NCBI GenBank assembly: GCA_963666515.2 | Contig: OY762897.2 | Coordinates: 864,001 to 928,000, forward strand | Length of the DNA: 64,000 bases | Direction of reading: 5' to 3' | Source of the DNA: Candidatus Binatia bacterium | GTDB taxonomy: Bacteria; Desulfobacterota; Binatia; UBA9968; JAJDTQ01 | Shown here: positions 49,500 through 51,343 of the stretch, piece after piece | Layout of the letters: each line of letters opens with the position of its first letter | Position numbering within the stretch: position 1 is the first letter of the stretch | Translations under genes and position numbers: made by a program | The notes under the pieces: generated by a model | The model's database searches: none | The model's input: the letters and a program-made list of their open reading frames with translations, nothing else | Told to the model about the DNA's origin: nothing

Positions 49500-50603
49500 A
49501 TGAGAATCACCGGCATCGACATCCATCCCCTGCGGATTCCCCTGAAGGGGGTTTTCCGCAACGCCCATGACACCAAGACCCGGCAGGACAGCATCGTGGT
49601 GCGGGTGCGCACGGACGAGGGCGCCGCGGGTCTGGGCAACGTCGACCCCGACCCCGGCCACTCCGAGGAGAGCTTCGGCGAGACCCTGAAGGCGGTGCGG
49701 GCGCTGGCGCCGAGTCTCACCGGCCGCGACCCGCTGAACGTCTCGGCCGCGCTGGAGATCATGGACCGCTGCCTGCCGCGCCACCTGGACGCCAAGGCGG
49801 CTCTGGAAATGGCGCTCTTTGACCTCAAGGGCAGGGTCATGGACCAGCCGGTGCACGCGCTCCTGGGCGGGAAGCTCAGGGATGAGGTACGGCTCAACGG
49901 CTGGATCGGCATGTTGGAGCCGGACGAGGCCGCGCGGGAGGCACTGGGCTGGCGCGACGCCGGCTTCGGCTCGGTGAAGATCAAGTTGGGCTCCGGCGTC
50001 GAGTCCGACCGTGACCGGGTGGCGGCGGTGCGCGGAACGGTAGGCGGCAGTCTGAAACTGCGGGTGGATGCCAACGAGGCCTACGGCGTAGATGACGCCA
50101 TCCGTCTGGGCAGGGCGCTGGCGCCGCTGGACGTGGCGCTGCTGGAGCAGCCGGTGGCCCGCGCCGACTACGCGGGCCTGGCGCGGGTGCGGCGCAGCAT
50201 CGACATCCCGGTGATGGCCGACGAAGCCATCGTCGGGCCGGAGACCCTGGTGGAGGTCATTCGGAAGGAAGCCGCGGACATCGTCAAGGTGAAGGTGATG
50301 AAACAGGGCGGGATCACCCGCACCGTCCGCATGGTCCACATGGCCGAGGCCGCCGGCGTCCAGTGCGTCATCGGCCACGGGTTCGGTCTCGCCATCAACA
50401 CGCTGGCGGAGATTCACGTGGCCGCGAGCTGCGCCAACGTCATGGACGGCTGCGAGTCCGTGGGTCCGCTCAAGATGGGCGGCGACGTGGTGGAGCAGCC
50501 ACTGGACCTGCGAGAAGGGCGGGTGCCGGTCCCCAACGGCCCGGGGCTCGGCGCAGAGCTGGCGGAGTCGGAACTGCGGCGCTGGGCAATGCCGGCGCCC
50601 TGA
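49500..50603 (+). CDS. Enolase superfamily protein (muconate cycloisomerase / dipeptide epimerase subgroup)
   Basis: KIKLG, VDANE, EQP, ADE, KVMKQGG, PGLG. Confidence 0.9.
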   Translation: MRITGIDIHPLRIPLKGVFRNAHDTKTRQDSIVVRVRTDEGAAGLGNVDPDPGHSEESFGETLKAVRALAPSLTGRDPLNVSAALEIMDRCLPRHLDAKAALEMALFDLKGRVMDQPVHALLGGKLRDEVRLNGWIGMLEPDEAAREALGWRDAGFGSVKIKLGSGVESDRDRVAAVRGTVGGSLKLRVDANEAYGVDDAIRLGRALAPLDVALLEQPVARADYAGLARVRRSIDIPVMADEAIVGPETLVEVIRKEAADIVKVKVMKQGGITRTVRMVHMAEAAGVQCVIGHGFGLAINTLAEIHVAASCANVMDGCESVGPLKMGGDVVEQPLDLREGRVPVPNGPGLGAELAESELRRWAMPAP

Positions 50604-50642: not shown

Positions 50643-50670
50643 CGTGCAGGGGCGGGTTTCAAACTTGCCC
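50643..50670 (+). repeat. REP-like palindrome, GTAG/GCAG class (copy 2)
   Basis: CGTGCAGGGGCGGGTTTCAAACTTGCCC. Confidence 0.6.
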
Positions 50671-50715
50671 GTGCCCGGTTCTTGCCATCGTCGCGGCACT
50701 CCAGGGAGGCACATC

Positions 50716-51222
50716 ATGAATCAGACCGTAGGCGCGAAGTTTCCGGATCTGGCCCTCAAGGACCACACGGGCCAGGAGGCGGCATTGTCGGGGATCACGG
50801 AGGGCAGGTTCCCCCTCATCGTGGCGTTCTATCGCGGCTACTGGTGAGGGAAGTGCGTGGTGCAGTTGCGCCACTTGGTCACCCTCCAGGAGGAGCTTCC
50901 CTCCGCCTATTGCCGGGTCGCCGTCGTCAGCGTGGACCCGCCGCCGGTGAACGGTGCGCTCAGGAACGGCCTCGGGGCGACGTTCCCGTTCCTGAGCGAC
51001 CACGAGCACAAGGCCATCGAGGCCCTGGACATCGTCGACACCTCGGACAAGAAGCACGGGACCATCGCGATTCCGTACGCCTTCTCGTTGCTGCCCGACC
51101 TCACGGTCCATCGCATCTACAATGGCTGGTACTACGTGGGCCGGCCCACCAACGAGGAGCTGCGGGCCGACATGCGGGCCATGATCCAGCAATGCCGGAA
51201 AGACTACGACCCGCAGGCATGA
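50716..51222 (+). CDS. AhpC/TSA (peroxiredoxin-like) redoxin, predicted selenoprotein (UxxC)
   Basis: GGAGG RBS, ATG 50716; in-frame TGA 50845-50847 in FYRGYW-U-GKC, at the position of the family WCPxC cysteine; the two ORF-track halves are in one frame; FPFLSD motif downstream. Confidence 0.85.
50857..50874 (+). promoter_or_regulatory. Candidate bacterial SECIS element
   Basis: Stem GTGGTGC/GCGCCAC with AGTT loop starting 16 nt after the UGA; lower pairing GGTGA/TCACC. Confidence 0.65.
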
Positions 51223-51275: not shown

Positions 51276-51343
51276 GGGCTGGGGGCGGGGCCAAGCCCCG
51301 TCCCCGGTGGTCCGCCCGCCGGTTTTGTGCTAATTCCAGCCCC

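Follow-up and report, generated by a model that had tools for sequence, protein, structure and literature searches.

Bacterial selenoproteins of the 'Prx-like protein' type, with a thioredoxin-like UxxC arrangement, were reported by Zhang, Fomenko and Gladyshev in 2005 (PMC1088965); a 2006 survey lists the class as 'Prx-like thiol:disulfide oxidoreductase' (PMC1794560), and a 2026 table entry reads 'PF00578; UxxC, UxxU; 1~2 Sec' (PMC13188914). The redoxin described here, encoded in a stretch of 64,000 nucleotides from a Candidatus Binatia genome (the window, C1:864001-928000), is a member of this class, to which we assign it by domain, motif and printed description. Such selenoproteins have been known for about 20 years. 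Our literature search found no paper joining Binatia with selenocysteine. Our reading, which we hold with considerable confidence from sequence comparison, is that positions 50716-51222 of the window encode one 168-residue PF00578 protein, and that the UGA at codon 44 is read as selenocysteine (Sec) by the organism's own SelA, SelB, SelD and tRNA-Sec, directed by a hairpin that follows it. As far as the comparative data speak, the gene is real and conserved, codes for a selenoprotein of a described class and is systematically mis-annotated; the known picture of bacterial Sec decoding is unchanged by it.

A redoxin gene with an in-frame UGA

When genes are called with translation table 11, the locus is split into two open reading frames (50644-50847 and 50857-51222), which lie in one frame (offset 213, or 71 x 3), as an earlier note on this DNA had pointed out; the TGA that the note placed at codon 44, within FYRGYW-TGA-GKC, is found exactly there (Table 1). 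Read through this codon, the product has 168 residues (MNQTVGAKFPDL…FYRGYW-U-GKC…DYDPQA), and its orthologues are colinear with it over residues 1-168. AGGAGG-like sequences are also found 5' of the aligned ATG in most of these orthologues.

Table 1. Features at the redoxin locus (window positions)
Feature	Positions	Strand	Details
Putative ribosome-binding site GGGAGG	50704..50709	+	6 nt 5' of ATG
Predicted selenoredoxin gene, AhpC/TSA fold	50716..51222	+	168 codons + TGA stop; read-through translation; start ATG 50716-50718, terminal stop TGA 51220-51222
Predicted Sec codon UGA, residue U44, first position of U-G-K-C	50845..50847	+	Codon 44; orthologue conservation
Possible lower stem around SECIS hairpin	50846..50903	+	50846-50854 with 50895-50903; MFE and centroid structures
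Cys47 codon TGC, putative resolving residue of UxxC	50854..50856	+	TGC/TGT in 60, TGA in 6 of 66 Sec forms
SECIS hairpin	50857..50874	+	TGA, 9 nt, arms GTGGTGC (50857-50863) and GCGCCAC (50868-50874), 7 pairs, one G-U; loop AGTT (AGUU in RNA, 50864-50867), 16 nt past UGA
Terminator-like hairpin followed by TTTTGTG	51304..51322	+	Consensus pattern match, between redoxin gene and bolA
bolA-family gene, 85 aa	51344..51601	+	PF01722, 64.8 bits

The host genome (4.67 Mb in 2 contigs, 98% complete) carries the whole machinery for Sec insertion, a search for which had been proposed in the earlier note: selA, selB, selC and selD were all found above curated cut-offs. The tRNA-Sec match reaches 73.1 bits (gathering score 47), with a TCA anticodon according to ARAGORN, and the matches for selA (586.9 bits), selB (370.9 bits) and selD (381.4 bits) lie adjacent to one another on the minus strand at C1:4043412-4047708, outside the window (loci L009, L010 and L018). 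Because the selD match itself holds one in-frame TGA, SelD is probably also a selenoprotein in this organism. We rejected an alternative genetic code with TGA as a sense codon genome-wide, as the enolase-superfamily gene upstream stops at a TGA (50601-50603) and the redoxin gene ends in one as well, which indicates that TGA serves here as a normal stop codon; moreover, the residue found in this column in homologues is Cys, and not Trp or Gly.

Conservation of the UGA was assessed by a six-frame search of 41 genomes, namely the host (G000), 24 further species of its genus, and 16 members of two other families in the order. In 39 of them the gene was matched over its full length, with exactly one TGA (the host, 23 of the 24 genus species, and 15 of the 16 genomes from the other families), the exceptions being G019 (76% complete), which gave no match, and G031 (95% complete), which gave a weak paralogue-level match only. 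In all 39 orthologues, whose identity to the window protein falls to 56%, the TGA sits at codon 44 in the context F-Y-R-[G/A]-[Y/H]-W-TGA-[G/P/A]-K-C, the next residue being Gly (28 genes), Pro (10) or Ala (1), and no TGC or TGT was seen at this codon in any of these close homologues. More distant full-length homologues do carry Cys in the column, as was the case for all ten that were aligned out of the 13 full-length proteins among the 120 best database matches. The remaining 107 matches, of 113-127 aa, start past the TGA and span 64-72% of the query, which bears out the suspicion that standard pipelines would miss this gene.

To the wider family we applied a scan of one genome per species, which gave 308 relatives, of which the best 80 were kept (L061-L140) and 74 could be classified; the other six loci did not fit our motif patterns (L084, L089, L110, L134, L139, and L121, which runs off its contig). 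At the Sec column, 66 of the classified loci have TGA and eight have TGC/TGT, with 60 loci being UxxC (TGA…TGC/TGT), six U-P-K-U (TGA…TGA) and eight C-P-[KR]-[DE], and the C/U44 column is invariant in our 37-row alignment (A3). Following U, the Sec forms read GKC (28), PKC (28), PKU (6) or AKC (4). The U-G-K-C motif without Pro, which the earlier note had considered unusual, is real, but its Gly is a lineage variant at the level of the genus, with Pro or Ala in other lineages, and not a new kind of active site. Similarly, the expectation of WCPxC at the position of the TGA holds for the wider thioredoxin-like fold only, since the Cys forms of this redoxin family are C-P-[KR]-[DE].

Selection on the protein sequence is evident on either side of the UGA. 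Among 24 colinear genus sequences, dN/dS is 0.19 over codons 1-43 and 0.13 over codons 45-168, and the purifying selection on the former indicates that the stretch 5' of the UGA is protein-coding in the redoxin frame. These data bear on the idea that the TGA arose by nonsense mutation or through an error in sequencing, the locus being a pseudogene or a mis-assembled Cys gene. Such a view would account for the two fragments obtained by table-11 calling, and for the many database entries that consist of the 3' fragment alone; against it stand the same TGA in 39 independent assemblies down to 56% protein identity, the selection just described, the conserved hairpin 3' of the TGA and the Sec machinery of the host, and we regard it as highly improbable. 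Alternatively, the locus might yield two products, a 43-residue peptide ending at the TGA and a 121-residue protein starting at GTG 50857, a codon that does open a 121-aa ORF, as gene callers report. This GTG, however, is codon 48, is replaced by CTG in one genus sequence, and gives way to a codon for Q, R or E in more distant orthologues; no ribosome-binding site can be separated there from the conserved coding sequence, the Cys homologues are continuous proteins, and the 121-aa piece would be missing the active site and the opening strands of what is predicted to be one compact domain. We give this possibility next to no weight, and return to the single read-through protein.

The hairpin downstream of the UGA

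The bacterial SECIS model given in PMC13188914 specifies a loop of 3-9 nt with a G in its first two positions, an upper stem of 4-16 bp, a distance from UGA to loop of 16-37 nt and a minimum free energy of -7.5 kcal/mol or below. The 7-bp stem with its AGTT loop 16 nt after the TGA, already recognized in the earlier note, is present at 50857-50874 with one G-U pair, and lies within these limits (4-nt loop, G in second position, 7-bp stem, 16-nt spacing), the spacing being equal to the lower limit of the published range. The energy of the hairpin is -12.2 kcal/mol for loci with the exact sequence of the window, and -11.9 kcal/mol for most genus loci. The 60 nt from the TGA onward fold at -29.3 kcal/mol, against -20.3 +/- 3.2 kcal/mol for shuffled sequences (z = -2.8; 3 of 200 shuffles equal).

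Both the TGA and the hairpin recur in the 39 orthologues, and an alignment of 48 nt from the TGA, comprising 34 distinct sequences, was used for covariation analysis. Across these distinct sequences 91.2% of the cells of the 7-pair helix are paired, and pairing drops to only 15-60% when the partner is shifted by 1-3 columns. The two lowest pairs show compensatory changes (GC to CG or the reverse in 6 rows, and UA to AU or the reverse in 6), and the observed covariation score was reached by none of 500 shuffles. Across orthologues, little variation is seen in the five upper pairs or in the AGUU loop. Conservation of the hairpin at the nucleotide level stems in part from the conserved peptide V-Q-L-R that it encodes. 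In the 24 genus sequences, synonymous diversity is 0.131 over codons 45-54 versus 0.383 over codons 55-168, which is about threefold lower, and Leu51 is TTG in 24 of 24.

We also scanned the family with our own no-bulge implementation of the published rules (PMC13188914). Fifty of the 66 Sec forms and none of the eight Cys forms passed, compared to a background of 455 of 8456 other codon positions in the same genes (5.4%). Some of the 16 Sec forms that fail this strict rule keep only the 5-bp core GGUGC/GCGCC; in the distant orthologues the two lowest stem pairs are unpaired in 8 and 7 of the 34 distinct rows, with the residual 5-bp core being worth about -8 kcal/mol. A further helix below the hairpin, with arms GAGGGAAGU and GCUUCCCUC, recurs in many genus sequences and is absent in distant orthologues; as it is predicted mainly within the genus, a role for this lower stem at the SECIS element is no more than suggested by the structure models. 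A different hairpin, GGAACUG-GUC-CAGUUCC, is found in a second clade of the family (Acidimicrobiia, Latescibacterota and others, including the UxxU forms), about 30 nt past the first UGA and, in the UxxU forms, 21 nt past the second. In the UxxU loci, this single conserved hairpin lies within the published spacing for both UGAs.

Taken together, the Sec machinery, the conserved TGA, the Cys found in its column and the hairpin support the interpretation of this gene as a 168-aa selenoprotein, which the earlier note had put forward.

Fold, active site and possible chemistry

The window protein matches AhpC-TSA (PF00578) with 59.4 bits against a cut-off of 26, and Redoxin (PF08534) with 48 bits. 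Among the NCBIfam models, none reached its cut-off for this protein or for six relatives that included UxxU, UxxC and Cys forms; the best match of the window protein was the SelL-related redox protein NF040769, with 25.3 bits against 120. On account of such scores, we do not file the redoxin under the SelL-related, ResA, TlpA, PrxQ, WAxxUGC or TUGYCR families (for NF041054, WAxxUGC_long, 19.2 bits against 300; for NF053656, redoxin_TUGYCR, 15.0 bits against 100).

The AlphaFold (AF2) model built from the 37-row alignment is a single domain (pLDDT 94.0, pTM 0.90), in which the fold starts at residue 8 and U44 directly precedes helix 45-64. The nearest solved folds according to Foldseek are Bcp4 (3hjp; TM 0.84/0.89), AhpE and ResA, and AhpE is also the best match among solved sequences (E = 4.8e-6). 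When the window protein is aligned to AhpE with HMMER, U44 comes to lie opposite the Thr of TxxC, and C47 opposite the peroxidatic Cys. The peroxiredoxin motif PxxxTxxC is lost, the corresponding residues being R40-G-Y-W-U44-G-K-C47, with Arg40 in place of Pro and Sec44 in place of Thr, and the peroxidatic position is occupied by Asp or Glu in all eight Cys forms among the classified loci. By alignment and model, Sec44 occupies the thioredoxin-type first position of UxxC, the nucleophile site, and not the position of the peroxidatic Cys; this first position is the invariant one of the family, as it is in CxxC motifs of the thioredoxin type. Membership in the peroxiredoxins was rejected on account of the active site, which has lost PxxxTxxC and, in the Cys forms, shows D/E at the peroxidatic position.

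With regard to chemistry, the selenolate of Sec44 would attack an oxidised substrate, for which a disulfide, either of a protein or of low molecular weight, is the most probable candidate; Cys47 would then resolve the intermediate to an intramolecular selenenylsulfide, and a thioredoxin-like reductant would recycle the enzyme. We lean, by a modest degree of belief, toward a disulfide as the substrate. It is conceivable, if rather doubtful, that Sec decoding occurs as proposed and the enzyme is instead a peroxidase, in which Sec44 would be oxidised to a selenenic acid by H2O2 or an organic peroxide, Cys47 would resolve it, and thioredoxin would recycle the protein. Glutathione peroxidase, which passes through such an acid, has its Sec at the same position of the fold as Sec44. 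In support of a peroxidase, the nearest Foldseek folds are of the BCP/PrxQ and AhpE type, AhpE being the best solved-sequence match, and the CPxD/E forms with their single active-site Cys resemble 1-Cys peroxidases more than CxxC reductases. The substitutions in PxxxTxxC (Arg40 for Pro, Sec44 for Thr) and the D/E of the Cys forms, however, argue against it, as does the NCBIfam thiol peroxidase model NF006960, which the window protein matches with 22.5 bits against a cut-off of 140, and disulfide reductases of the ResA type match the structural model about equally well (TM 0.83-0.87 on target length). As for the Cys forms, their lack of a second Cys (CPxD/E) would fit a one-cysteine mechanism better than classical CxxC exchange. 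Disulfide exchange by the Sec form remains the chemistry we favour.

Family history, neighbours and relation to described systems

A maximum-likelihood tree of the 74 classified proteins, with a midpoint root used for drawing only, requires at least two changes of the CxxD/E label and at least three of the UxxU label, both forced by well-supported branches. The association of Sec with C/U, and of Cys with D/E, at position +3 thus rests on about two independent events. One of the Cys clades, with a C-terminal cold-shock domain, groups with the Sec forms of Methylomirabilota, and the other one, made up of Actinomycetota sequences, forms the sister group of the second Sec clade. All Cys loci have D/E at +3 (L123, L128, L130, L133, L136, L137, L138 and L140), and so do the database proteins P0063, P0075, P0087, P0088, P0090, P0098, P0107, P0112, P0118 and P0119. 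Some of the Cys forms are longer, at 248-281 aa (P0070, P0075, P0087, P0107, P0111 and P0121; L123, L128, L133 and L140); most of them are C-terminal PF00313 cold-shock fusions, a statement from which the tails of L133 and L140 are excluded, and P0070 is listed without PF00313. The relatives with W-U-P-K-U, in which two in-frame TGAs are three codons apart, are L118, L119, L120, L122, L124 and L135.

Within the phylum, the order of the host is the only sampled one in which the orthologue was found, and its occurrence in other phyla is patchy, a distribution also indicated by the redoxin query having given no match at E <= 1e-30 in an even draw of 150 other genomes of the phylum. The near-identical relatives were deposited as MAGs under the names Candidatus Binatia, Thermodesulfobacteriota, Syntrophobacterales or Deltaproteobacteria. 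In genomes G025-G040, which belong to the same order, many weaker, paralogue-level matches to the redoxin (E 1e-3 to 1e-11) also hold exactly one in-frame TGA, and these genomes probably encode several further Sec redoxins.

Upstream of the redoxin gene are a PEP-mutase/isocitrate-lyase-family gene on the minus strand and a gene of the enolase superfamily (MR/MLE); downstream, bolA is followed by an amidohydrolase-2 gene and by an arylmalonate-decarboxylase-like gene on the minus strand. The terminator-like element that separates the redoxin gene from bolA is no more than a pattern match, from a consensus scan that returned 2 sites with 0.6 expected. At 39 of the 80 loci kept as the best of the 308 relatives, the redoxin gene has a BolA homologue downstream of it in the same orientation: all 23 genus loci, in three of which another ORF intervenes and bolA is about 1.3 kb off, and 16 more distant ones, where BolA is only 54-64% identical and the other neighbours differ. 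Among the same 80 loci, no bolA was found within the 1.5-kb flanks of those from Methylomirabilota, those of the second clade and those of the Cys form. When 54 ORFs flanking 14 loci outside the bolA-linked lineage were scanned with Pfam, no recurrent partner emerged; luciferase-like monooxygenases flank two of the 14, and nothing else repeats.

One could speculate that this branch is no plain redoxin in which Sec and Cys are interchangeable, that its motif changes as a whole from U-x-K-C/U to C-P-x-D/E or back, with different chemistry for selenium and sulfur, and that in the lineage of the host the Sec form is paired with the downstream BolA by analogy to monothiol glutaredoxins and theirs, the selenium lying at the contact and the pair acting in Fe-S cluster or redox signalling; we consider such a scenario a long shot. 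The conserved bolA neighbour is, at any rate, a testable lead to a partner or pathway, and Sec with a resolving Cys or Sec, versus Cys with Asp or Glu, represents a small natural experiment on the use of selenium. There is also a practical consequence. Given that the gene and hundreds of its relatives are stored as 113-127-aa fragments, and that no curated NCBIfam model catches them, selenoproteome counts are too low in soil and groundwater lineages, including MAGs labelled Candidatus Binatia, Methylomirabilota, Acidimicrobiia and others.

Compared with described systems, the redoxin shares with ResA and TlpA (1st9, 2h1b, 3c73) the thioredoxin fold, with the W-C-x-x-C of ResA at the start of helix 1, TM values of 0.83-0.87 on target length and weak sequence matches to the window protein, but it and its relatives score only 16-25 bits against NCBIfam cut-offs of 170-230. 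ResA and TlpA are membrane-anchored extracytoplasmic proteins; in the window protein, whose AF2 fold begins at residue 8, there is no N-terminal anchor or signal extension. With the BCP/PrxQ and AhpE peroxiredoxins (3hjp, 2cx3, 1xxu) it has the overall fold in common (TM 0.73-0.84 on query length), and differs from them in having no PxxxTxxC and a Sec at the position of the Thr.

The likeness to the SelL-related family (NF040769) consists in the Prx-like fold, in this model being the top NCBIfam match of the window protein and of five of the six relatives scanned (and second-best for L119), and in the U-P-K-U of six relatives. The scores of 19-42 bits against 120, however, set the redoxin apart, and the window protein is UxxC and not UxxU. 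Eukaryotic SelL is itself reportedly a UxxU protein, as Shchedrina et al. (2007, cited in PMC2398784) are said to have described.

The Prx-like thiol:disulfide oxidoreductases are the closest of these systems. The branch described here differs from the rest of the class by its signatures GLGAxFPFLSD and NGWxxVGRPT, by Gly or Ala often replacing the Pro after Sec, by Cys forms of the CPx(D/E) type, by bolA downstream, and by scores that reach no NCBIfam cut-off. In common with the class, the window protein exceeds the PF00578 gathering score and has a distant similarity to peroxiredoxins (identities to the listed peroxiredoxin structures are 12-24%), it carries UxxC instead of TxxU, with UxxU among its relatives, and its Sec forms outnumber the Cys forms, as they do in the Sargasso Sea table of PMC1088965.
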